Positions 8,848 through 27,338 are shown, numbered from the stretch's first letter. The stretch is DNA of 53,846 bases from Escherichia phage mEp554 (PP180005), one strand, 5' to 3'. A program made the numbers and translations. Notes: a model not told the origin generated them from the letters alone.

Positions 8848-9112
8848 GTTTCTTTCTCCTATGGTTAGAGTGAACGCGCTGGCGGGTATCAAATTAGCAT
8901 TAGATAGCAGTGACTGACCGCTGAACAGATCCCGCCGTTGCGTGATATTTGTTTTTCGCTTCGCAGCGACACCGGATTTTTAAAGAGCTTTTAAGGTATG
9001 TGCCTTTTGTGCTTTCCCTTATCTTTTTCCTTGCATCATTGCAAGTTCGGCTTTACCTTGTCTGTAAGTTTACAGAATGGCGTTAACAGATCAAGGATTG
9101 AAAATTACATTT

Positions 9113-9954: not shown

Positions 9955-10088
9955 GCGAGTCAAAGGAGGAAGCAAGGCAGGGAAAGAAGGTTACTTGCTC
10001 TTTAACAATCTGGTCAGCCGCTGGAAGTGCGGCAATTAACGAAGATGATTTTTATTAAGTATCATCAAGGATATAAGGAGATCAGATC

Positions 10089-10379
10089 ATGACAGTTACA
10101 ATCATGTATGGCAAATGTGATAGCAAAATAAACGCCAGGGAACGCAGAAGAATAAAAAGAGAAAACGAAAGAAAATCATCACCTGCAATTAATAAAACGG
10201 ACAATGTGGATAAAGCCATTCGCTTTGCAAACGATGAAAGATGCAAACCCAATGGCATTAAAGAACGTCGCAAAGGAGCAGTAAAATGGTATACGGAAAA
10301 TGAAAGCGGCAACTACTACCACGCAACGCAACCACGCCAACTAGGGGAGAAACCACTGGATAAAGTCCGTTACCATTAA
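10089..10379 (+). CDS. Hypothetical basic protein
   Basis: AGGAG SD; lysine/arginine-rich. Confidence 0.55.
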   Translation: MTVTIMYGKCDSKINARERRRIKRENERKSSPAINKTDNVDKAIRFANDERCKPNGIKERRKGAVKWYTENESGNYYHATQPRQLGEKPLDKVRYH

Positions 10380-17874: not shown

Positions 17875-17896
17875 AATTTACAAAATGGCGTCATTG

Positions 17897-17912
17897 CGTG
17901 ATGCGGATCACA
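17897..17912. promoter_or_regulatory. CRP-like palindrome CGTGATGCGGATCACA
   Basis: GTGA-N6-TCACA; centred about 60 bp upstream of predicted TSS of promoter CTTGTT-N17-TATACT (17929-17957). Confidence 0.35.
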
Positions 17913-18033
17913 TAATGGCGCTTTTTGTCTTGTTTGCATGTATCCATTTTGTATACTTCAAGCAAACAAAATGCTCTTTAAAAATCCGGCAGCGCTGAAA
18001 TGCGTAGAAATCACCTGAAAAGGAGAGAGCATT

Positions 18034-18210
18034 ATGCCTTTTGATAATTACCAATGGCATGACGACTATGAACGAGAGAGCGTTATGCGTGCAATGTGCA
18101 ATGTATGCAGCACGAAGAGAGGAGGCTGTAACGAGTGCAACGAATGCTTAGAACATTGGCTAAGGGCCGGACACGCCGAAAGGCTGAACGAAACAGAGAA
18201 TCAAAAATAA
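18034..18210 (+). CDS. Hypothetical Cys-rich small protein (58 aa)
   Basis: AGGAGAG SD; CNVCSTKRGGCNECNEC. Confidence 0.4.
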   Translation: MPFDNYQWHDDYERESVMRAMCNVCSTKRGGCNECNECLEHWLRAGHAERLNETENQK

Positions 18211-18224
18211 TCGGGGTGGTTTTT

Positions 18225-18830
18225 ATGCAAAACCCTAAAAAACCCATAAGACGCCGTTGCAAATGCTGCGGCGTTTTTTTTGAGCCTAAATACCATAATC
18301 AAACGTGGTGCAGTGATGAGTGTCTGGAAGAGCTGAAATTTGATCAGCTATGCCGCGACCGTGAGAAGGCTATGAAGGCTATGGAGCGGAAGAAACGCCG
18401 TGATAGCCAGCGTGAAGAACGCAACCGGAAGCGTAAACAGTTAAATCCGCGTAGTTATTGGATCAAACAAGTTCAAAATGTATTTAACGCCTATATTCGA
18501 GAACGTGACGCGCGCTTGCCGTGTATATCTTGCGGGACTTACTACGGTGAGCAATGCGGGTGGGATGCAGGCCATTACAGGACGGTAGCCGCCGCCGGAC
18601 ACCTTCGCTTCAACGAGGATAATTGCCATAAGCAATGTAGGCACTGCAACCAGACACTAGACGGCAACATCGGAGGGTATCGCCCGGCACTGATTCGAAA
18701 AATTGGCCTCGCCAGGGTGGTAGCTCTGGAGAACAACAACGAAACTCACAAATGGACGATTGCAGAATGTAAGGAGCTAATAAACATCTATCAGGCTAAA
18801 TTGGACGCCTTAAGGAGAAAGGCAGCATGA
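18225..18830 (+). CDS. ninG: NinG-family protein
   Basis: RRRCKCCGVFFEP...YWIKQVQNVFNAYIRERDARLPCISCG...WDAGHYR...LRFNEDNCHKQC closely resembles lambda NinG. Confidence 0.85.
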   Translation: MQNPKKPIRRRCKCCGVFFEPKYHNQTWCSDECLEELKFDQLCRDREKAMKAMERKKRRDSQREERNRKRKQLNPRSYWIKQVQNVFNAYIRERDARLPCISCGTYYGEQCGWDAGHYRTVAAAGHLRFNEDNCHKQCRHCNQTLDGNIGGYRPALIRKIGLARVVALENNNETHKWTIAECKELINIYQAKLDALRRKAA

Positions 18831-19234
18831 ACGAATATACATTTAGCCTACCTTACCCGCCATCGAATAATCGCTATTACCGACATTCGCGCGGTTTTCA
18901 CTATATCAGCAAAGTGGGGAAGGAATACAGGGAACAAGTAAGAGACATCATTGAGCTATTAAATTTAAATATTAACCTGCCTTGCCGACTGGCAATTGCA
19001 ATTTACGCCGCGCCGCCGGATAACCGGATCAGAGATCTGGATAATATCCCTAAATGCCTTTTTGATAGCCTTACTTATGCCGGATTCTGGATGGATGACG
19101 GGCAAATTGACTCAATAAAAATTGTCCGCTGCCGGAAGATAAAAGGCGGACGCTTGTTTATTAAGATCCGCGAACGCGGCGACCTACTACCGGATATTGA
19201 CGAATACGCGACTAATATGTGGGGTGAGCAATGA
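18827..19234 (+). CDS. rusA: RusA-family Holliday junction resolvase
   Basis: LPYPPSNNRYYRHSRG...RDLDNIPKCLFDSLTYAGFWMDDGQI matches RusA motifs. Confidence 0.85.
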   Translation: MNEYTFSLPYPPSNNRYYRHSRGFHYISKVGKEYREQVRDIIELLNLNINLPCRLAIAIYAAPPDNRIRDLDNIPKCLFDSLTYAGFWMDDGQIDSIKIVRCRKIKGGRLFIKIRERGDLLPDIDEYATNMWGEQ

Positions 19235-19413
19235 AAAACGAAATTAAAGATCTGCAAATAGATATTCAGCGCGATGAGCATGATTTAGCTACAGTCCGAC
19301 AAATCCAGGCTTTCCACATGAGAGAACTGCTTGCGCTGAAAGAGCTTGAAAGAAAGTTGGTCCAATCAATATCTGATCGTAAACGTCTGGTTGCTCGTTA
19401 CGGGGGCAAATAA
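19231..19413 (+). CDS. Hypothetical protein
   Basis: ORF in operon. Confidence 0.45.
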   Translation: MKNEIKDLQIDIQRDEHDLATVRQIQAFHMRELLALKELERKLVQSISDRKRLVARYGGK

Positions 19414-20135
19414 TGAATCTGGAATCAATTCTTAAATTCCACTTCCCAAAATCACCGCGTTTGTCAGATGAAAGCCGGGGCACGTCCCCGGATGCGCTTA
19501 ATACTACTGATGCACTAACTGCCGCAGGTATGGCGCAATCGCGCGTAGAGCTTGGTTATAGCGCTTTTTTGGGGAAGATGGAACTATCACAAGCCGAAAA
19601 GCATAAGGCCGTAGTTTTGCTTATAGAGCGTTTAAGGGCTATGGCAAAAGACTATGAATACGTTATGGAACTGGACGAGGCCAAACGCAATGATCTCATT
19701 ATTCTTGTTGCCGTTTTCGCATTTCGGGATTATTGCCAGAGTGCCGCGACGGAAAAAACTTGTATGGAGTGCGGCGGATATAAATTTACGTTTGACGAAT
19801 ACGGGGAAAAACACCTTTGTAAAAAATGCAAGGGGCATGGGACAGTTCGCAATCATTGTAAACAATGCAAGGGCCGTGGCGAAGTACCGGATAAAGCAGC
19901 CAGCGAAGCGGCGGAAATGCCAGTGTTCAAAACGTGCCAGCGCTGCGGCGGGCGCGGGTACTCGCGTTTCCCTGTAGATCTTGTCCGGCAGGCGGTTAAT
20001 CAGCTTGTTTTTCCGGTAAGCCGATCAACATGGTGGAAGAAATACCGGGCTTTCTATGAAGACGCCATTGCCGAATTGTTCAAAGAAGAGGCGCGGGCTG
20101 ACAACGAAATTAAACGAGTGACGCGGGGTGAATGA
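19413..20135 (+). CDS. Q-like late antiterminator (phage 82 type) with four CxxCxGxG zinc-finger repeats
   Basis: N-terminal MNLESILKFHF...SRGTSPDAL recalled as Q82-family; CMECGGYK, CKKCKGHG, CKQCKGRG, CQRCGGRG. Confidence 0.6.
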   Translation: MNLESILKFHFPKSPRLSDESRGTSPDALNTTDALTAAGMAQSRVELGYSAFLGKMELSQAEKHKAVVLLIERLRAMAKDYEYVMELDEAKRNDLIILVAVFAFRDYCQSAATEKTCMECGGYKFTFDEYGEKHLCKKCKGHGTVRNHCKQCKGRGEVPDKAASEAAEMPVFKTCQRCGGRGYSRFPVDLVRQAVNQLVFPVSRSTWWKKYRAFYEDAIAELFKEEARADNEIKRVTRGE

Positions 20136-20335
20136 TGGATAAGCTGGAAATAAACGATCAGTTTGCTGTTATCTTATTCGAAGATAAAACAGGCGGCGCA
20201 TGGTGTAAGAAAGTCACTGGTGCGGAAGCGCGTTTGGTTTTGGGTATGGCAAGCGCGTTAAACGAAGGCGAATTACCAGCCATACCTATTAAGCCAGTCA
20301 AAATATACAAACGGGGTGACGATGATGAAGCCTAA
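20132..20335 (+). CDS. Hypothetical protein
   Basis: ATGA overlap with Q stop. Confidence 0.45.
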   Translation: MMDKLEINDQFAVILFEDKTGGAWCKKVTGAEARLVLGMASALNEGELPAIPIKPVKIYKRGDDDEA

Positions 20336-20594
20336 ATTAAAAGAACATCTATTTGCAAAGCTGGTTAATGACCTGACATTATCCGCGCGGTTGTGCCGTG
20401 ATACACAACAATTGAGGGCGTGGATAGCAAGGGATTTAAGAAAATACATTGAGCCAGGCGGACCAGGCGACAAAATGACTATGGACGAGGCCATCAAGCG
20501 CCGTTCGGCTGATTGGTCAGTTAGTAACACAGGATTAACCGGATACATTGAAGGCTATAACGACTGTTTACAGGATCATAGCAATGAAAAGTAA
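20322..20594 (+). CDS. Hypothetical protein
   Basis: GGGGTG SD. Confidence 0.45.
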   Translation: MMKPKLKEHLFAKLVNDLTLSARLCRDTQQLRAWIARDLRKYIEPGGPGDKMTMDEAIKRRSADWSVSNTGLTGYIEGYNDCLQDHSNEK

Positions 20595-20796
20595 CCGCAA
20601 GCGCCTTGTAAGGGCGTATGACAAAGCATTAAAGGCTTTTGATGATCTGCGACACAACAAACGCCAGCGCCGTAAATGGGCGCGTATGCTTGTAAGGGAA
20701 TGGCATAGCGAGGAATATTTCCTTAATGCCAGGCACATGACTCAGGATGTAGCTGACATGTTAGCTGACGAGAACGTTTATTACATGATGTGGTGA
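20584..20796 (+). CDS. Hypothetical protein
   Basis: AGGAT SD. Confidence 0.45.
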   Translation: MKSNRKRLVRAYDKALKAFDDLRHNKRQRRKWARMLVREWHSEEYFLNARHMTQDVADMLADENVYYMMW

Positions 20797-20800
20797 TAAT

Positions 20801-21166
20801 ATGCAAATAATCATTGATTATCTTTGCCATGCTGTGAATACGCTTTTTGGTTTTTATCAACAACCATTCCTAAAAGAATGGGATGAAATGCTTAACGACA
20901 TTATTGACAAAGGGTTAATAGTTGAAGTCGGCGAGCTAACGATAAAATTCAATTACGAAGGAAAGGAATATGAAATATGGGTAGGGAATAGATGGTACTC
21001 ATACGGTCATATTTATTCAATTGGCGGTATGTACATTAAACGTAGCCAGGAGTTCAGGCCGCGATTCCGCACAATGCGCCGCCTGCGTGACCTGCATATG
21101 AATATATTTGAAAATCAGGAAGCGTGTGAACTATTCAAGATCTACGGGGATAAATCATGGAATTAA
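20801..21166 (+). CDS. Hypothetical protein
   Basis: GGTGA SD. Confidence 0.5.
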   Translation: MQIIIDYLCHAVNTLFGFYQQPFLKEWDEMLNDIIDKGLIVEVGELTIKFNYEGKEYEIWVGNRWYSYGHIYSIGGMYIKRSQEFRPRFRTMRRLRDLHMNIFENQEACELFKIYGDKSWN

Positions 21167-21387
21167 AAATCTGGCAGGCTATCGACGTAGTTGATAATGA
21201 ATTGTCTATGTTCGCCACTAACGGGAAACGCGTTGTGATCGCTACATGGACACGTAACCATGATGATATTGCTTTTCGTCGCGCTGCGGCGGAATTGCTT
21301 TTCTCTGATGGCGGCTACACGATGAACATCGCACAGCTTGCCAGAATGAAAGATGAAAAGCTGGTGGACAGCTACACAACTGCATAA
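21157..21387 (+). CDS. Hypothetical protein
   Basis: GGGGA SD. Confidence 0.45.
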   Translation: MELKIWQAIDVVDNELSMFATNGKRVVIATWTRNHDDIAFRRAAAELLFSDGGYTMNIAQLARMKDEKLVDSYTTA

Positions 21388-21397
21388 CGGGGTGAAT

Positions 21398-21628
21398 ATG
21401 CGTATCTATGAGCACAAGCGGGATAAAACCCGCTTTTTTGTTCGTGCTGGCGTTGCGTACTGGTATCACGAATGCGGATACATTGAGGCACTTGCTTACG
21501 ATCTGGATTTTGAGCAGGAAAAAGAATGGTTCGATTTTAAAATTTACCGTAAGCGCAAACCAACGCGCGACGAGCGACACGCTATCCGTGACTTTTTAAT
21601 CAGTATTGAGCGCTGGGGGACAGATTAA
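21398..21628 (+). CDS. Hypothetical protein
   Basis: GGGGTGA SD. Confidence 0.45.
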   Translation: MRIYEHKRDKTRFFVRAGVAYWYHECGYIEALAYDLDFEQEKEWFDFKIYRKRKPTRDERHAIRDFLISIERWGTD

Positions 21629-21855
21629 TGAAAGTTAAATTTTTGCACGATCACGGTTATCCGTCATTGAAACAGGTTGTTGGTAAGGTGGTTAACGTCG
21701 TTCATAGCGATAATGTCACTTGCATGATTAACGGTGCTGACCTCATTGCCGCTGGCGCTGATGATCATTACATTAATCCGGCATGGTCGTATACGTTCAG
21801 CCTGAGTGACTTCGTTGGCGATAAGGGGCGCGGGCTGGAAGTAGTCGAGGGTTAA
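21628..21855 (+). CDS. Hypothetical protein
   Basis: GGGGA SD. Confidence 0.45.
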   Translation: MKVKFLHDHGYPSLKQVVGKVVNVVHSDNVTCMINGADLIAAGADDHYINPAWSYTFSLSDFVGDKGRGLEVVEG

Positions 21856-21859
21856 CATC

Positions 21860-22108
21860 ATGGACGTTTACGAAGATCTATACCTTCAGACAAATACCAA
21901 CACTTTTTATTTTCTGAATAACGGCGTCGTGTATCGCAGTGACGACGGGGTGATAATGAAAGAGTGGTTATTTAAGCGTGAAGATCTACTCGACGATCTG
22001 GTTTTTGCCGGGGTATTTCGTAAACGTCCGGCTAACCTGGAAGAAGAAATGTTGATAGAGGTATTTCAAAATGAAAATCAGGGTAAGTTATTTCCGGGCG
22101 AAAGATAA
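21860..22108 (+). CDS. Hypothetical protein
   Basis: GAGGG SD. Confidence 0.45.
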   Translation: MDVYEDLYLQTNTNTFYFLNNGVVYRSDDGVIMKEWLFKREDLLDDLVFAGVFRKRPANLEEEMLIEVFQNENQGKLFPGER

Positions 22109-22124
22109 GGCAACAGGAAGGCAG

Positions 22125-22322
22125 ATGGCGATCCTGGTTAACGAGGCGCGTTACATGTTTGTGCTTCAGCCGTGGTGTGTTGTAGACCTTAACGACAATT
22201 GCCGCCGTCACGCCGCGCGGAGTGCTGTAGGAATGAAAGGATGGCAGCCGCGCGACATGGGAAACTATTGTGACTGGAAATTGGTGGCAAAATATACGGT
22301 TGATTATAAAGGGGTTTTCTAA
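22125..22322 (+). CDS. Hypothetical protein
   Basis: Start at SD-preceded MAILVNEAR (alternative 22071). Confidence 0.4.
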   Translation: MAILVNEARYMFVLQPWCVVDLNDNCRRHAARSAVGMKGWQPRDMGNYCDWKLVAKYTVDYKGVF

Positions 22323-22534
22323 TGCAAGTTAAATGCACATGCTCAAGCAATGACAGCGTCTTCACTATTGGGCGTGCTTATGACGTTCATATCGTTTATG
22401 GCAATGCGGTTAGCGACGCTGGAGTTACGCTTGTATTGATTGACAATCATGATAATGTGTGGGGATTTATGCCAAATTACCGGGGCGGTGAGATAACTGG
22501 TGTTCATTTCTCGGCCAGCTTCGAGCGTTATTAA
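22322..22534 (+). CDS. Hypothetical protein
   Basis: AAGGGG SD. Confidence 0.45.
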   Translation: MQVKCTCSSNDSVFTIGRAYDVHIVYGNAVSDAGVTLVLIDNHDNVWGFMPNYRGGEITGVHFSASFERY

Positions 22535-22571
22535 TTGCGTCATAATGTTGATTTTAATGAATAAATAAAAA

Positions 22572-22587
22572 TGTGATCTTTATCACA
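22572..22587. promoter_or_regulatory. Perfect CRP-consensus palindrome TGTGATCTTTATCACA
   Basis: TGTGA-N6-TCACA; centre about 60 bp upstream of predicted TSS of the 22605-22633 promoter. Confidence 0.4.
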
Positions 22588-22604
22588 ATGTATACAAAAT
22601 GGCA

Positions 22605-22633
22605 TTGTTTCGGCAGTGCCGTTTTGTTATATA
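22605..22633 (+). promoter_or_regulatory. Sigma70-like internal promoter
   Basis: TTGTTT, 17-nt spacer, TATATA; TATACAAAATGG motif directly upstream. Confidence 0.4.
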
Positions 22634-22666
22634 TAAGTCACTGAAAGACGAATGGAAGGTAAGAAG

Positions 22667-22792
22667 ATGAACGCTAACGCTAAATATCCGGCATGGGTCT
22701 TTGAACTATACGCCCGCTACTTTGAATTGCTGGCACCAGGTGAAGAAGCATTAAGCATTGACGAATACGCTGAGTGTTTAGGGTTCAAATGA
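22667..22792 (+). CDS. Hypothetical small protein (41 aa)
   Basis: GGAAGG SD. Confidence 0.35.
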   Translation: MNANAKYPAWVFELYARYFELLAPGEEALSIDEYAECLGFK

Positions 22793-22850
22793 GACAAAGA
22801 AGAATAAAACACGGGGCCGGATGGCCCAATCAAACCAGAAGGTTGCAATC

Positions 22851-23150
22851 ATGAAAAGCGATAAGTTCATAGCGTGCTGTTTTGTTGAAGTGCCTAAAGG
22901 TGATGTTTTCTGCAATTATGAATTTAAAGACAGTTTAGGCCGATCTCATGTTGTTGTTGGTAAGCGGGGCGATTGGTTATATATAACAGACGACGACATG
23001 ATTTTTACCAGAAATCAACTATTTCACATCAACTCATTAAATAATTATGCGCCAGTTGCCGCTATATCCATGATGGATCTTAAATCTAATATGTGGCTTG
23101 AAAAGGACACTGTGCATAAAGCGCGTAGCTTACCTAGTGCGGAGTTTTAA
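22851..23150 (+). CDS. Hypothetical protein
   Basis: GAAGG SD before MKSDKF. Confidence 0.45.
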   Translation: MKSDKFIACCFVEVPKGDVFCNYEFKDSLGRSHVVVGKRGDWLYITDDDMIFTRNQLFHINSLNNYAPVAAISMMDLKSNMWLEKDTVHKARSLPSAEF

Positions 23151-23152
23151 TT

Positions 23153-23407
23153 ATGGTTGTGATCAGACTATGGCGCGGTAATAGCCGATTTGATGGTAAA
23201 TATATCCGCGTAATTGAAGATGTTAATCGTGGTCGGTTTTATGAATTGGTATACAGCGAAAAAAGGGAGAAAGAATATCTGAACGAATCGATCCCTATGT
23301 GGCGTAAAGTGGCTGGCCTTGCCTTAATTCTGCGCCGCGGGTTTTATACAGATCACAACACACTAACAGATGCGGAACTAGTGACAATTCTTTACAAAGG
23401 AGAATAA
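23153..23407 (+). CDS. Hypothetical protein
   Basis: ORF in operon. Confidence 0.45.
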   Translation: MVVIRLWRGNSRFDGKYIRVIEDVNRGRFYELVYSEKREKEYLNESIPMWRKVAGLALILRRGFYTDHNTLTDAELVTILYKGE

Positions 23408-23410
23408 CAA

Positions 23411-23734
23411 ATGTCTAAATTTATCAGCGTTAATGTTTTCCGTGGCAATTTTCCAGAAGATAAAGAAATTGGACAATTCGCAGGTGAACGTGGCGTATGT
23501 TTCCGTGTAGCTACTGAAGACGATGCGCACGTTAAATGCTTTCACGTATCTGAACCGCCTTTTAATGCAGACCATCTTGAAGACCTGAATAGAATTAAAA
23601 GCCTTATTTTTGCCTATCTGGCGTTCCCTGGCATAGCTGATGCTGATGTGGAATTGGTTGGGGCCGAACTGGTGGCAGAATACAAAATGACTGAAGGCGA
23701 AAACGGAGGGGTGGAAATTGAGCGCATCAAATAA
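23411..23734 (+). CDS. Hypothetical protein
   Basis: AAGGAG SD. Confidence 0.5.
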   Translation: MSKFISVNVFRGNFPEDKEIGQFAGERGVCFRVATEDDAHVKCFHVSEPPFNADHLEDLNRIKSLIFAYLAFPGIADADVELVGAELVAEYKMTEGENGGVEIERIK

Positions 23735-23972
23735 ACCTTACAAAATCCGTTGTAAAGGCGAATATCCTGGTTTTACGATTGGTTGCGAATACATGGGCCA
23801 CATTGGGTACGGCCCTTTCGGTGAATTAGGAATGAATACGCTGGACGACGACGGCGACAGCAGGACGCTTGATCTCGATTCTGATGATTTCGAATACATC
23901 CCGCCAGTGACTTGCCGCGTCGTTGATGAGTTCCTGGCTGAACATGAAGACGATGAGGATGATTATGATTGA
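23718..23972 (+). CDS. Hypothetical acidic protein
   Basis: TTG start with GGAGGGG SD; C-terminal EHEDDEDDYD. Confidence 0.4.
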   Translation: MSASNKPYKIRCKGEYPGFTIGCEYMGHIGYGPFGELGMNTLDDDGDSRTLDLDSDDFEYIPPVTCRVVDEFLAEHEDDEDDYD

Positions 23973-24159
23973 ATGCCTTATTGCTGTGACTGTTTTGCTT
24001 TATATCGCTGGCGCGATCTTGATGTCATGTTTTATTAAGGTTAGTGAGGCTGACCGTTGCGGATTTGAGATCCCTTTTTGGCCTGTATTGGTTTTTCTCG
24101 CTTTCTTTGATGCTACGGTAGTGCAGATCAAACAAGCTATTAAGGAGCGCAAAAAATGA
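23965..24159 (+). CDS. Small membrane protein (two hydrophobic segments)
   Basis: MIECLIAVTVLLYIAGAILMSCFI...FWPVLVFLAFF; GAGGA SD. Confidence 0.45.
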   Translation: MIECLIAVTVLLYIAGAILMSCFIKVSEADRCGFEIPFWPVLVFLAFFDATVVQIKQAIKERKK

Positions 24160-24338
24160 TTGAAGACGGCATCTATGGTGTAAACCAGATGGAAAACGTT
24201 TTTTACATGGTTGACGGCGATACCGTAACAATCAGCGTAGATGGTGGGGAATACGCAGAGCCATTCTTCAAAACAACAAGGGAAGACATTAAGCGAAGCG
24301 TTGATAAAGGCATACTATTTAAGGTTGGCGAGCTATGA
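24156..24338 (+). CDS. Hypothetical protein
   Basis: GGAG SD; N-terminal MIEDGIYG shared with next ORF. Confidence 0.45.
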   Translation: MIEDGIYGVNQMENVFYMVDGDTVTISVDGGEYAEPFFKTTREDIKRSVDKGILFKVGEL

Positions 24339-24511
24339 ACGAGATCGAAGACGGCATCTATTTGCACATGTTATTTAACATCGCCTATTTGGTTAAAGGT
24401 GATAAGGTGATGATTCAGAATCCAGAAAGTAAATGCTGGGAATCAAGCATGATGGATCGTTGGCACATGCAAATGCTACTTGATAATAACCTGATATACA
24501 GAAAGCAGTAA
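24335..24511 (+). CDS. Hypothetical protein, N-terminal paralog of preceding ORF
   Basis: MNEIEDGIYLH versus MIEDGIYGV. Confidence 0.4.
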   Translation: MNEIEDGIYLHMLFNIAYLVKGDKVMIQNPESKCWESSMMDRWHMQMLLDNNLIYRKQ

Positions 24512-24519
24512 AGCCGTAT

Positions 24520-24548
24520 TTGTGGCTCGAAAACAAACGGATTAAAAT
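24520..24548 (+). promoter_or_regulatory. Sigma70-like promoter immediately upstream of lysis cassette (candidate late promoter)
   Basis: TTGTGG, 17-nt spacer, TAAAAT. Confidence 0.4.
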
Positions 24549-24576
24549 ATTACCTAACAATGCGAAACTGTAACTA

Positions 24577-24598
24577 CCCGGCCCCGTGCCGGGTTTTT
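24577..24598 (+). terminator. Rho-independent terminator about 30 nt downstream of the candidate late promoter (tR'-like)
   Basis: CCCGGC-CCCGT-GCCGGG hairpin followed by TTTTT. Confidence 0.6.
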
Positions 24599-24618
24599 GC
24601 TTTGTTGGAGGTAAATCT

Positions 24619-24819
24619 ATGTTCGACAGAATACGGGAGGCGTGTGCGTATGTGACTGGTGCAGTAACCGCTTTTTTCGGTGCTATAACCATCAATGACG
24701 TCGCTGTTTTCGTTGGTATCTTATCAACCATAGGCACATTTGCCGTTAACTATTACTTTAAATCACAGGAGAACAAGCGAGCGCAAGAGGAACACGACGC
24801 GCGAATGGGGAATAAGTAA
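24619..24819 (+). CDS. Holin (pinholin-like, two TM segments)
   Basis: 67 aa; GGAGG SD; resembles phage 21 S-type pinholin architecture; precedes SAR endolysin. Confidence 0.7.
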   Translation: MFDRIREACAYVTGAVTAFFGAITINDVAVFVGILSTIGTFAVNYYFKSQENKRAQEEHDARMGNK

Positions 24820-25311
24820 ATGATTAGCCAATCGCTGAAAAACAAGATTGTTGCTGCGGCGGCTGGTGGTGCAATCGCTATTGCGGCGGTGATGATTAAG
24901 CCATTAGAGGGCGTGGAATACGATCCATATCGTGATGTTGTTGGCGTATGGACTGTTTGCTACGGTAACACCGGAAAAGACATCATGCTTGGGAAGACTT
25001 ACACGCAATCAGAATGCGATGCTTTGCTGAACAAAGATCTACACAAAACCGCAAAAGCGATTGACCCATATATCAAAGTCGAAATATCAGATTTTACCCG
25101 CGCTGCACTTTATTCCTTCGCCTATAACGTAGGCGCAACCAACTTCAAAACATCAACCTTATTAAAGCTACTCAATGACGGCAAGAAATCGGAAGCGTGC
25201 GCACAGCTTAAACGCTGGGTATACGCTGGCGGTAGGAAGTGGCAAGGCCTGGTAAACCGCCGCGATGTTGAATATGCCGTTTGCGAATGGGGGGAAACGT
25301 GGACAAGGTGA
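24820..25311 (+). CDS. SAR endolysin (GH24 lysozyme, phage 21 R-like)
   Basis: N-terminal weakly hydrophobic [21 protein letters not shown] segment; [34 protein letters not shown] lysozyme core. Confidence 0.85.
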
Positions 25312-25769
25312 AGGCGTTAATTATCGCCGCTGTTGTTTGCATTATTGCCAGCCTTACCGCCGTAACGTGCCATTACCAGAGTGAGGCGACAAGGTTACAG
25401 GAAGAGTTAACGACCACGCAAGGCGCACTGAAAACAGCAAGTAACACTATTCAGCAGATGAAGGAGCGAAACGCCGAACTGTCAAAACTTGATAAGAGGT
25501 ATCACGATGAGATTAAAGCTATCAGATCTGACATTGCCGATCTGCGCACTGGTATTGATAACGGCACTATCAGGCTGCGCGTCAACGCAATACCCGTGCG
25601 AGTGTCCGACCCCGCAGGAACCGCCAGCGCCATTAATGGAGCCTCCTGTAGACTCACTCCCGACGCTGAATCGGCTTATCTATCCCTCAGAGAACAACTA
25701 AAAGAGAAAGACGCGAAGATAACCGCGCTTCAGGGATACATCAAAACGCAGTGCTTACGCAAAGAATAA
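25287..25769 (+). CDS. Inner-membrane spanin Rz-like
   Basis: N-terminal [15 protein letters not shown] then coiled-coil; overlaps endolysin 3' end; start uncertain (25281-25308). Confidence 0.7.
25507..25701 (+). CDS. Outer-membrane lipoprotein spanin Rz1-like, embedded in Rz in +1 frame
   Basis: Lipobox LSGC after signal segment; proline-rich [14 protein letters not shown]. Confidence 0.65.
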   Translation: MRLKLSDLTLPICALVLITALSGCASTQYPCECPTPQEPPAPLMEPPVDSLPTLNRLIYPSENN

Positions 25770-26048
25770 CAGTGCGTTGACGTGTCGCCGTTTCTGCCAG
25801 CCAGCCATAACCGGGCCAATCCTTCCCGCGAGCGACGGCAGAATAGTCAAAAACACGTAATGCCGGATCAACAGTCCCATTAACAGGTCAGGCGCTACCT
25901 GGGTAGAAGAAAGCGCCATCCACCAATTTTATAAAATTCTGTAAACGGTACTCACACAGCGCCGTTTTCAGTGTTTTATAGCTGTTTTCACTCCCTGCGG
26001 TGTCCAGTTTTGCGGGGGTTATATTTTTCAGGATAGAGGAATATTCTG

Positions 26049-26606
26049 ATGGCTAAGGCTAAAGGCATTAAGTTGCCTCAATTCAAAGTCCCGCTCTTTG
26101 AGCATACAACTGTTTTCTTTTGCCCGACCCGCGAGATGTTCTATGAGTTTTGCGAAAAGGCAGGGATCCCAATCGAACCTGATTTCGAACTGGCAGGAGG
26201 ATTAACGCTTACTTGCACTGGTGAGAAAGGCGGTAACTTCTACGTGATCGCAGTATTCGACAATGAGTTAGGAACGCTGGTACATGAAGCGGCCCATACT
26301 ACATTTCACGTTTTAAGTGATGTAGGCGTCGTGGCGACCACTGATCCCAGCCATCCGGCAAACGAGACTTATGCTTACATGGTAGGCCGTATCTTTGATG
26401 CTTTCTTCCCCATCCTGGCAGAATCAAATGAAGCACAGGTGGCAGCAATGCAGGCAGAAGAAATAACCGAACGTCTTAGCGCACAAGAGGCAAGGGATAT
26501 TGCTAATGAGGCAAAAGACAAGCAAAAGCCAGCTAAGAAAGGCAAACGTAAGCCTAAAGCAAAAGAGGCGCTTGTGCCGCGTGTTATGAGCTTTAAACGG
26601 GGGTGA
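26049..26606 (+). CDS. Hypothetical protein with HExxH motif (possible zinc metallopeptidase) and lysine-rich C-terminus
   Basis: LVHEAAHTTFHV; C-terminal KDKQKPAKKGKRKPKAK. Confidence 0.55.
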   Translation: MAKAKGIKLPQFKVPLFEHTTVFFCPTREMFYEFCEKAGIPIEPDFELAGGLTLTCTGEKGGNFYVIAVFDNELGTLVHEAAHTTFHVLSDVGVVATTDPSHPANETYAYMVGRIFDAFFPILAESNEAQVAAMQAEEITERLSAQEARDIANEAKDKQKPAKKGKRKPKAKEALVPRVMSFKRG

Positions 26607-26608
26607 TT

Positions 26609-26704
26609 ATGGGTATCCTTCTGGTATGTGTATTTATTGCTTTAGTTGCGATGGAGGTATTGCTCCCCATTTGGGCGGCGACCTGGATGATGCAAGATGA
26701 TTGA
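26609..26704 (+). CDS. Mini-gene 1 of array: hydrophobic peptide (31 aa)
   Basis: MGILLVCVFIALVAMEVLLPIWAATWMMQDD; GGGGGTGA SD. Confidence 0.4.
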   Translation: MGILLVCVFIALVAMEVLLPIWAATWMMQDD

Positions 26705-26771
26705 CCCGCTCATTATCCTTTCTGCCTGCGTCGCTGTATGGCTGGCGATCATGATATTCATTGAAAGCTAA
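26697..26771 (+). CDS. Mini-gene 2 of array (24 aa)
   Basis: MIDPLIILSACVAVWLAIMIFIES; start overlaps mini-gene 1 stop. Confidence 0.35.
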   Translation: MIDPLIILSACVAVWLAIMIFIES

Positions 26772-26781
26772 AGGCGTTCAC

Positions 26782-26856
26782 ATGAATATTTACGATCTAA
26801 TCTGGTGGTTGTTGGTCGCCGTCATTATCTATTTCTGGTGGAAGAATGTTGTATAG
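26782..26856 (+). CDS. Mini-gene 3 of array (24 aa)
   Basis: MNIYDLIWWLLVAVIIYFWWKNVV; AAAGG SD. Confidence 0.4.
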   Translation: MNIYDLIWWLLVAVIIYFWWKNVV

Positions 26857-26864
26857 GTGACGGC

Positions 26865-26963
26865 ATGGATATATTCGAATTACTGGCGATTATGTTCGGA
26901 ATGATGTTAAGCATTGTCGCCATAATTATCATCATCGGCCTTGTTATGGGTAGCATCAAATGA
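26865..26963 (+). CDS. Mini-gene 4 of array (32 aa)
   Basis: MDIFELLAIMFGMMLSIVAIIIIIGLVMGSIK; AGGTGA SD. Confidence 0.45.
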   Translation: MDIFELLAIMFGMMLSIVAIIIIIGLVMGSIK

Positions 26964-27040
26964 ACGCATACGAAATGCTATTGCTGGTGGCTGTTATTAC
27001 AGTTATCGCCGTAGATTTTTATCGAGGGTTGAAAAGATGA
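26960..27040 (+). CDS. Mini-gene 5 of array (26 aa)
   Basis: MNAYEMLLLVAVITVIAVDFYRGLKR; ATGA overlap. Confidence 0.4.
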   Translation: MNAYEMLLLVAVITVIAVDFYRGLKR

Positions 27041-27108
27041 GAGAAGCAGACTTCTTTTGCATGATTATAGTGATCGTCATCGTTGCCGTGCTTTTAAGCG
27101 TTAACTGA
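27037..27108 (+). CDS. Mini-gene 6 of array (23 aa)
   Basis: MREADFFCMIIVIVIVAVLLSVN; GAGGG SD; ATGA overlap. Confidence 0.4.
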   Translation: MREADFFCMIIVIVIVAVLLSVN

Positions 27109-27125
27109 ATCGCAGGAGGTTAAAA

Positions 27126-27194
27126 ATGAAATTGCTTGATTTCTTTTTCCTGATTGTTGCGATTGTTCTTACCATGACCGCGCTGACTCAATAG
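27126..27194 (+). CDS. Mini-gene 7 of array (22 aa)
   Basis: MKLLDFFFLIVAIVLTMTALTQ; AGGAGG SD 7 nt upstream. Confidence 0.45.
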   Translation: MKLLDFFFLIVAIVLTMTALTQ

Positions 27195-27202
27195 GTGAAT
27201 AT

Positions 27203-27277
27203 ATGGAAACTATCGAAGCAGTATTATTCGTGTTCATCGCTGCGGTTGTTATTGTTGGGTTTATTATCAATGTCTGA
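27203..27277 (+). CDS. Mini-gene 8 of array (24 aa)
   Basis: METIEAVLFVFIAAVVIVGFIINV; AGGTGA SD. Confidence 0.45.
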   Translation: METIEAVLFVFIAAVVIVGFIINV

Positions 27278-27338
27278 CGTCGATTTCTTAATCATAGCTA
27301 TAAGTTCGCTGTTAGTCGTTATCGTTTTCTTCGCATAA
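27270..27338 (+). CDS. Mini-gene 9 of array (22 aa)
   Basis: MSDVDFLIIAISSLLVVIVFFA; start overlaps mini-gene 8 end. Confidence 0.35.
   Translation: MSDVDFLIIAISSLLVVIVFFA

Follow-up and report, generated by a model that had tools for sequence, protein, structure and literature searches.

A lambda-type Q antiterminator separated from its putative late promoter by a block of small genes in Escherichia phage mEp554

The Q antiterminators of the lambda-Q family are described as parts of a compact cassette, in which the Q gene is followed by an adjacent late promoter (PR'), a sigma-dependent pause element, a terminator, and the late genes (PMC9388147). The same source identifies the sigma70-dependent pause element, where Q loads, as a -10-like hexamer at +1 to +6, and it describes the N-terminal 44 residues of lambda Q as forming the nozzle of the RNA exit channel. 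Here, we analyzed the 53,846-nucleotide (nt) sequence of Escherichia phage mEp554 (PP180005), referred to as the window, in which the Q gene lies far from the lysis genes and from the only PR'-like site. The window is the complete genome of a phage that belongs, like mEp021 and mEp044, to the published mEpimmI group, which was described as a group of Nus-dependent, non-lambdoid temperate phages (PMC11893012). That description does not contain the words "late promoter" and does not discuss the site of action of Q or its separation from the lysis genes. The first open reading frame (ORF) of the window, an integrase at 186-1400, has identical coordinates in mEp021, and the Q-to-holin region matched mEp044, mEp010, MagusPhagus, mEp013, mEp021, and mEp515 with 88-94% identity over 45-86% of its length. 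The likeness to mEp021 and the mEpimmI group extends to a common gene order, the nut sites, and the terminator TERM_5 ahead of the holin.

The late regions after Q of lambda, P22, ES18, SfV, and phi80 were used as references. Lambda has a leader of 194 nt, and no more than about 50 bp separate its Q stop codon from the start of the promoter. In P22, P-late comes directly after gene 23, and the annotation places +1 at the first A of AACGAT and tR' (t-late) at +31 to +59; a short terminated leader is therefore normal for the family. SfV and phi80 encode a long form of Q with an additional CxxC pair and have a terminator directly ahead of the holin. In SfV, the interval from Q to the holin also contains two additional genes, which lie downstream of its Q-adjacent terminator. 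In Shiga toxin (Stx) phages, the stx genes lie between Q and the lysis genes, downstream of tR' (PMC6266700). PR' and tR' thus adjoin Q in SfV, phi80, and the Stx phages, and the cargo lies downstream and is hence late and Q-dependent, whereas the cargo of the window lies upstream of the putative promoter. A looser precedent is found in the telomere phages N15, phiKO2, and PY54, where a putative q was described in the immB region next to cro, not adjoining the late genes (PMC4997575); the likeness is one of gene placement as described, in another type of genome.

In mEp554, the Q gene is followed by 18 plus-strand ORFs, and the PR'-like site comes only after them, directly ahead of the holin (Table 1). 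We consider it likely that this arrangement is a lambda-type Q switch with its target ahead of the lysis cassette and an array of early accessory genes between Q and target. The distance from the Q stop codon to the -10 hexamer was 4407 bp, in agreement with the original prediction, made from the sequence, that about 4.4 kb of small ORFs separate Q from the lysis genes. The prediction had described about 20 small ORFs without a gap; the ORFs are indeed tightly packed up to 24511, although they number 18 and are interrupted by a single 117-nt non-coding stretch (22535-22651), which contains a conserved hairpin. The starts and stops mostly overlap or are at most 4 nt apart, and the TGA of Q (20133-20135) overlaps the ATG of the next ORF at 20132.

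The block ends 8 nt ahead of the -35 hexamer, and the gap ahead of the holin measures 107 bp. The promoter TTGTGG-N17-TAAAAT and the terminator that had been proposed for this gap are both present, and their interpretation as a PR'-tR'-like pair (24520-24598) was supported by the reference phages, which share with the window the 17-nt spacer, the -10 hexamer, the length of the discriminator, and an AACNNT hexamer. The late promoters of lambda and P22 both consist of -35 TTGACT, -10 TAAATT, discriminator TGACTC, and pause-like AACGAT; the SfV promoter of TTGCAT, TAAGAT, TTTTCC, and AACGAT; the phi80 promoter of TTGCAT, TAGATT, CATCTCT, and AACGCT; and the ES18 promoter of TTTACA, TAATAT, CGTTTCT, and AACAGT, each with a 17-nt spacer. 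The corresponding elements of the window are TTGTGG, TAAAAT, ATTACCT, and AACAAT. The spacer segment that adjoins the -10 hexamer, a candidate Q-binding element, has the same position as the A-rich-TGG(G/A) segment in lambda, P22, SfV, and phi80. Transcription is expected to start at about 24555-24556, giving a predicted leader of about 43 nt, even shorter than that of P22. The extended hairpin at 24570-24600 has a folding energy of -16.9 kcal/mol (z -2.7), and this terminator is the only canonical intergenic one on the plus strand between 18273 and 34496. It corresponds to TERM_5, or t5, of mEp021, t5 being equated with TERM_5 by the GenBank order of TERM_1 to TERM_5. The t5 terminator is listed among the experimentally demonstrated terminators in the legend of Figure 7 of the mEp021 study (PMC11893012).

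Compared with the published cassette (PMC9388147), the window has an intrinsic terminator and, by sequence, a pause-like element, and it lacks the adjacency to Q. The likeness to lambda comprises the Q family, the N-terminal nozzle segment, the zinc ribbon, the 17-bp spacer, the -10 hexamer, AACNAT at the transcript start, and the intrinsic terminator. The differences from lambda, apart from the distance, the 18 intervening ORFs, and the leader length, are the -35 hexamer (TTGACT in lambda, TTGTGG in the window), the sequence of the spacer with the candidate Q-binding element, and an extra zinc-binding pair in the Q protein of the window. P22 gene 23 resembles the window in its membership of the family and in its short terminated leader. 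The original prediction had offered unconventional late control as one explanation; this holds for the gene order only, whereas the elements look conventional. The locus is a positional variant of a known switch within an already published phage group.

For the analysis of conservation, 46 IMG/VR loci with Q proteins 83-98% identical to that of the window were compared together with mEp044, mEp021, and the window; with two truncated contigs dropped, the set comprised 47 usable genomes (numbered L loci), which carry 31 distinct versions of the pre-holin gap. The -10 hexamer, AACAAT, and the six-pair terminator stem were unchanged over all 31 versions, and the pattern TAAAATA[TC]T[ATC][CT]CTAACAATGCGAAA occurred exactly once in each of the 47 genomes. 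The half of the spacer proximal to the -10 hexamer read AAACAAA-Y-R-GAT in 46 genomes and AAACAAGCAGAT in L036. By comparison, variation was seen among the relatives in the discriminator (the 7 nt before AACAAT), in the loop of the hairpin, in the -10-distal half of the spacer, and in the ORF upstream. An invariant -10 hexamer, AACAAT, and stem with variable surroundings fit a promoter, a pause element, and a terminator, and would not be required of a mere operon end. The -35 hexamer was TTGTGG, TTGTAG, or TTGTAT in 36 genomes and TCGCGC in the other 11 (L011, L012, L020, L023, L033, L039, L041, L044, L045, L048, and L049), in which the sequence from AAACAAA onward was unchanged. No covariation of Q alleles with site variants was observed; the variants were freely reassorted. 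Additionally, a 75-bp core of the site was present as a single copy in each of 35 E. coli genomes, as many as carry the Q-block region, which was matched in prophages of 35 of 5426 complete E. coli genomes; in all 35 genomes with the site, it accompanies this Q.

The distance from the Q stop codon to the -10 hexamer ranged from 1927 to 6725 bp in the 47 genomes, and the two were never adjoining. For comparison, a profile search for the lambda-Q family provided 67 further loci, whose Q proteins are 35-42% identical; 66 of these loci have enough downstream sequence. In all 66, the first terminator-like hairpin was located 0-252 bp from the Q stop codon, mostly at about 100-125 bp, and many of them have a -10/AACNNT pair 37-52 nt ahead of this hairpin; the hexamer AACAAT itself also occurs in locus L126. 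The mEpimmI group thus represents the only lineage of the family in this sample with genes between Q and its apparent target.

The assignment of the Q gene, which the original prediction had regarded as possibly wrong, was confirmed by several searches. The protein matched Pfam PF03589 with an E-value of 8.5e-31 (106.4 bits against a curated cut-off of 26.7), PHROG 127 "anti-termination protein Q-like" with 3e-79 over its full length, and the solved structure of lambda Q (7UBM) with 4e-40, where residues 1-114 aligned to 1-114 and residues 148-238 to 117-207. The nozzle segment aligned closely, and the zinc-ribbon cysteines C149, C152, C175, and C178 were invariant across six members of the family. 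Judged by this homology, the 240-amino-acid protein is a genuine lambda-Q-family antiterminator. An insert at residues 115-147 carries the extra CxxC...CxxC pair (residues 117-139), which is missing from lambda and P22 Q. The insert lies at the base of the DNA-binding "arm", and longer versions of it occur in ES18, SfV, phi80, and a Providencia phage. Q was intact in all 47 genomes, with 27, 23, and 144 variable sites at the first, second, and third codon positions, a pattern indicative of purifying selection throughout the set.

Upstream of Q, the terminator behind the cytosine methyltransferase gene has a hairpin of -18.1 kcal/mol (-23.6 kcal/mol and z -5.2 with its flanks). It is followed by a nutR2-like site, 1.4 kb upstream of Q, which precedes ninG, rusA, Q, and the block. 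The exact boxA-like sequence GCTCTTTAA has three copies in the window, at 8980-8988 on the minus strand and at 9997-10005 and 17973-17981 on the plus strand. A short hairpin whose loop is A-rich follows each copy, and the three positions agree with nutL, nutR1, and nutR2 described for mEp021 (PMC11893012).

From these elements, we propose the following order of events. The nutR2-like site would load an N-like antiterminator, a homologue of Gp17 encoded by the ORF at 10089-10379, which would make rightward early transcription resistant to termination. The early transcript would then run through ninG, rusA, and Q and continue unbroken through the 18 small ORFs, the N-like antitermination carrying the polymerase past the two conserved internal hairpins of the block. 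The block ORFs would be delayed-early accessory genes, a nin-type region extended beyond Q. Only after them would the late promoter follow, with TTGTGG, a 17-nt spacer conserved in its -10-proximal half, TAAAAT, and a start near 24555/24556. The polymerase is expected to pause at about +16, where sigma70 would re-bind the -10-like AACAAT at +1 to +6, and, when Q is absent, to be halted by the hairpin terminator once about 43 nt have been transcribed. Q made 4.4 kb upstream would diffuse to the site and load onto the paused polymerase, which would then pass the terminator and transcribe the genes for holin, endolysin, spanin, and structural proteins.

Table 1. Coordinates of predicted features around the Q gene, the block of small ORFs, and the lysis cassette of the window.
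Feature	Position	Strand	Description
Terminator after the cytosine methyltransferase gene	17888-17926	+	Strong intrinsic terminator; corresponds to TERM_4 of mEp021
nutR2-like site	17973-18008	+	boxA GCTCTTTAAAAA and short hairpin with A-rich loop; putative function
NinG/Rap and RusA genes	18135-19234	+	Delayed-early, nin-type, ahead of Q; PF05766 (1e-66), PF05866 (9.7e-15)
Q antiterminator	19413-20135	+	Lambda-Q family; 240 amino acids; PF03589, PHROG 127, 7UBM
Block, first half	20132-22534	+	10 small ORFs; the first starts within the Q stop codon
Hairpin with T run	21416-21441	+	AAGCGGGATAAAACCCGCTTTTTTGT; 18 nt within ORF 21398-21628; candidate internal attenuator or terminator
Conserved non-coding element	22570-22637	+	About 75 bp; terminator-like hairpin 22596-22627 after TGTGA-N6-TCACA (22572-22587)
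Block, second half	22652-24511	+	8 small ORFs, the last two paralogues
Putative PR' -35	24520-24525	+	TTGTGG; matches 3 of 6 consensus positions
Candidate Q-binding element	24531-24542	+	AAACAAACGGAT; spacer segment adjoining the -10 hexamer; putative binding
Putative PR' -10	24543-24548	+	TAAAAT; matches 5 of 6 consensus positions; 17-nt spacer from the -35 hexamer
Sigma70-dependent pause-like element	24556-24561	+	AACAAT; 7 nt after the -10 hexamer
tR'-like intrinsic terminator	24570-24606	+	Core stem 24576-24594, then T run TTTTTGCTTTGTT
Holin	24619-24819	+	ATG at 24619; GGAGG at 24607-24611 ahead
Endolysin	24820-25311	+	Lysis cassette 24619-25769
Rz-like spanin	to 25769	+	Lysis cassette
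Rz1-like lipoprotein ORF	25489-25701	+	Lies within the Rz-like gene in a different frame; lipobox LSGC; usual embedded spanin pair

Several observations weigh against this proposal. The start site, the pause, the binding of Q, and the early timing of the block are predictions made from sequence. The presence of TCGCGC in 11 genomes is the main weakness of the promoter assignment, and the promoter strength is uncertain due to this replacement and to the weak -35 hexamer of the window. The bare motif (a -10 hexamer, 6-7 nt, and AACNNT) occurred at chance frequency in the window, 10 times against 11 expected; consequently, the significance of the pre-holin site rests on its context and conservation. 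AACAAT begins 14-21 nt before the terminator stem, compared with the 37-52 nt of the other loci, and the similarity to the lambda Q-binding element is limited to a loose A-rich-(T/C)GG pattern. The two conserved terminator-like hairpins within the block have no role in a simple model, and an N-like-modified polymerase coming from nutR2 might read through the pre-holin terminator without Q. A consensus promoter scan missed the pre-holin site because its -35 hexamer matches so few consensus positions, and the matches that it listed were at chance level (15 against 15.1). In loose three-element scans, the motif was as common as in shuffled sequence, so that it carries no weight alone. The pattern TTAAAAT-N6-TAACAATGCG, run against species-representative genomes, gave 119 matches, all in unrelated taxa and chance-like, as the pattern is too short.

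The block was 94% coding on the plus strand and collinear between genomes, and its variable sites were concentrated at the third codon position (977, against 565 and 478 at the others); we regard it as coding. Across the 47 genomes, it contained 8-27 ORFs each, drawn from 41 families in constant relative order with presence/absence variation. The nin region of lambda likewise consists of small, closely spaced delayed-early ORFs, which are in part dispensable and rely on antitermination by N. It lies before Q, whereas the block of the window lies after Q, although ninG and rusA homologues precede Q here as well. The block is wholly upstream of the sole PR'-like site in the window, that is, outside the position downstream of PR'-tR' that Q-dependent late cargo occupies. 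Since it precedes the promoter and its first ORF overlaps the Q stop codon, the block is more readily understood as early than as late, and it is most likely delayed-early cargo co-transcribed with Q. On the same grounds, and because the overlap recurs in relatives, the earlier suggestion of late cargo inserted between Q and its target was not supported. The next ATG overlaps the Q stop codon in 26 of the 47 genomes by automatic ORF calling, and in the other 21 this coding sequence is present immediately 3' of Q, either as such or as a remnant.

Two conserved hairpins interrupt this picture. The first, with a T run, lies just inside an ORF and was invariant in 45 of 46 relatives, whereas the surrounding codons varied at third positions, which suggests a constraint at the RNA level within the coding region. 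Its interpretation as a fourth nut site was rejected, as it has no boxA ahead of it and all three exact boxA copies are found at other positions. The second belongs to the conserved non-coding element in the 117-nt stretch; its 13 pairs are flanked by runs of A and T, its stem is conserved and its loop variable, and its folding energy is -15.7 kcal/mol (z -5.4). The element was conserved in 38 relatives despite different neighboring genes; a recombination linker or a terminator, internal or bidirectional, are possible roles. Another possibility is that some of the block genes form units with expression of their own (morons), driven for instance from this element with its CRP-like TGTGA-N6-TCACA core, and possibly expressed in the prophage. 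The conservation among differing neighbors, the perfect core in the window, and the presence/absence gene content would be in line with such units; nevertheless, the palindrome is kept by only about half of the relatives, no convincing -10 hexamer was found at a suitable distance, and the hairpin lies downstream, not upstream, of the putative promoter. We regard this possibility as unlikely, and it would be compatible with a Q switch ahead of the holin.

The main rival explanation is that the late genes are reached mainly by read-through of the early transcript, with a Gp17-modified polymerase coming from nutR2, the pre-holin hairpin being an operon end and the -10/AACAAT pair having no special function. 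The short distance of the nutR2-like site from Q, an early operon unbroken up to the pre-holin terminator, a -35 hexamer that is weak or absent, and the chance frequency of the bare motif all favor this explanation. However, it would not account for a Q gene that stays intact under apparent purifying selection in every genome, nor for TAAAAT and AACAAT that are invariant amid varying non-coding bases, which a terminator at an operon end would not need, nor for the position-for-position match to the late promoters of the five reference phages. We therefore consider read-through rather improbable as the main route to the late genes.

Two further explanations retain Q and its site, and modify the promoter. 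In one, which starts from the 11 genomes without a -35 hexamer, the Q switch is embedded within the operon, promoter-less in some members: Q loads onto polymerase that comes from the early operon and pauses, with retained or rebound sigma70, at the tandem -10-like elements, and the two internal hairpins (21416-21441 and 22596-22627) act as staged checkpoints for the timing of its arrival at the site; we judge this very unlikely. In the other, the site is a promoter-less Q-utilization site, at which a polymerase from the early promoter, with retained or rebound sigma70, pauses at the tandem -10-like elements and is loaded with Q, so that late transcription is continued early transcription. The 11 genomes without a recognizable -35 hexamer and the location of the site at the end of a long operon, not after a gap, would suit it, whereas the lambda-Q family offers no known precedent, the published cassette definition includes a promoter (PMC9388147), and the 17-bp spacing and the TTG of the -35 hexamer are kept in 36 of 47 genomes. 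This second version appears highly improbable.

The least tenable explanation, to which we attach hardly any credence, is that the block is late cargo as in Stx phages, the actual promoter and leader under Q control being hidden in coding sequence where Q ends or shortly thereafter, and 24520-24598 being a secondary terminator: a second terminator does lie just ahead of the holin in SfV and phi80, and a promoter-like site (21171-21198) with a hairpin (21271-21298) is present within ORF 21157-21387, the mEp021 counterpart of this hairpin lying 114 nt after Q, but the hairpin is broken in most relatives, the hexamers of the promoter-like site show no constraint beyond coding, the coding sequence of the first ORF overlaps or directly follows Q in every relative examined, and no second copy of the conserved spacer/-10/AACAAT motif was found in the window. 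The hairpin at 21271-21298 is the sole hairpin in the first 1.3 kb after Q. Apparent hairpins at the Q stop codon in nine relatives were rejected, since they are part of the normal coding sequence of the first ORF. The arrangement would have been contradicted by a terminated leader directly behind Q, which was looked for and not found.

If the Q switch does lie ahead of the holin, adjacency of Q and its target would not be required for the lambda-Q family. Older lambda genetics describe Q as acting preferentially in cis, which was attributed to the proximity of the target. This widespread group of gut coliphages keeps a lambda-type Q, with 2-7 kb of variable small genes before the apparent target, and it would provide a natural series for effects of distance on lysis timing or cis preference. 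The 8-27 small genes would be marked as early rather than late cargo, which narrows the search for their functions, for example to host takeover or counter-defense. When Q-encoding prophages are annotated, a position of the late promoter beside Q should not be taken for granted.

Concerning the individual block genes, no match was obtained for any of the 18 ORFs in Pfam and NCBIfam, and 16 of them matched PHROGs, essentially all families of unknown function. Three block families were present in all 47 genomes (window ORFs 21157-21387, 21860-22108, and 22071-22322). The second of these is 96% identical to mEp021_41, a protein detected by mass spectrometry in purified mEp021 virions (PMC11893012), and its family is confined to E. 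coli prophages. Because one block protein was found in virions, the block is expressed in lytic growth. The structure model of 21860-22108 was mediocre (predicted local distance difference test, pLDDT, 63) and gave no PDB match better than an E-value of 0.34; the RegA-like similarity suggested for this universal protein (PMC11893012) was neither confirmed nor excluded. Rfam and transfer RNA (tRNA) scans over the whole window gave no match.

The last two ORFs of the block, 24156-24338 and 24335-24511, are tandem paralogues that both match phrog_15318. ORFs 21628-21855 and 20581-20796 have homologues with 42-49% identity in virulent rV5-like myoviruses (about 136 kb) and Sasha-like siphoviruses; small accessory genes of this kind are therefore common to temperate and lytic phages. 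The first ORF after Q is frameshifted in four relatives (L026, L047, L048, and L049), at a run of A in the first three, and only a remnant of it is left in L028-L030. The frameshifts reflect either errors in sequencing or the decay of a gene that is dispensable.

The lysis cassette was assigned by the families PF16080, PF00959, and PF03245 and PHROGs 20, 7, and 13. In the 279-bp gap after it, a hydrophobic ORF of 54 amino acids was found on the minus strand (25755-25919). Additionally, several very small hydrophobic ORFs lie on the plus strand at 26603-27338, ahead of the terminase genes.

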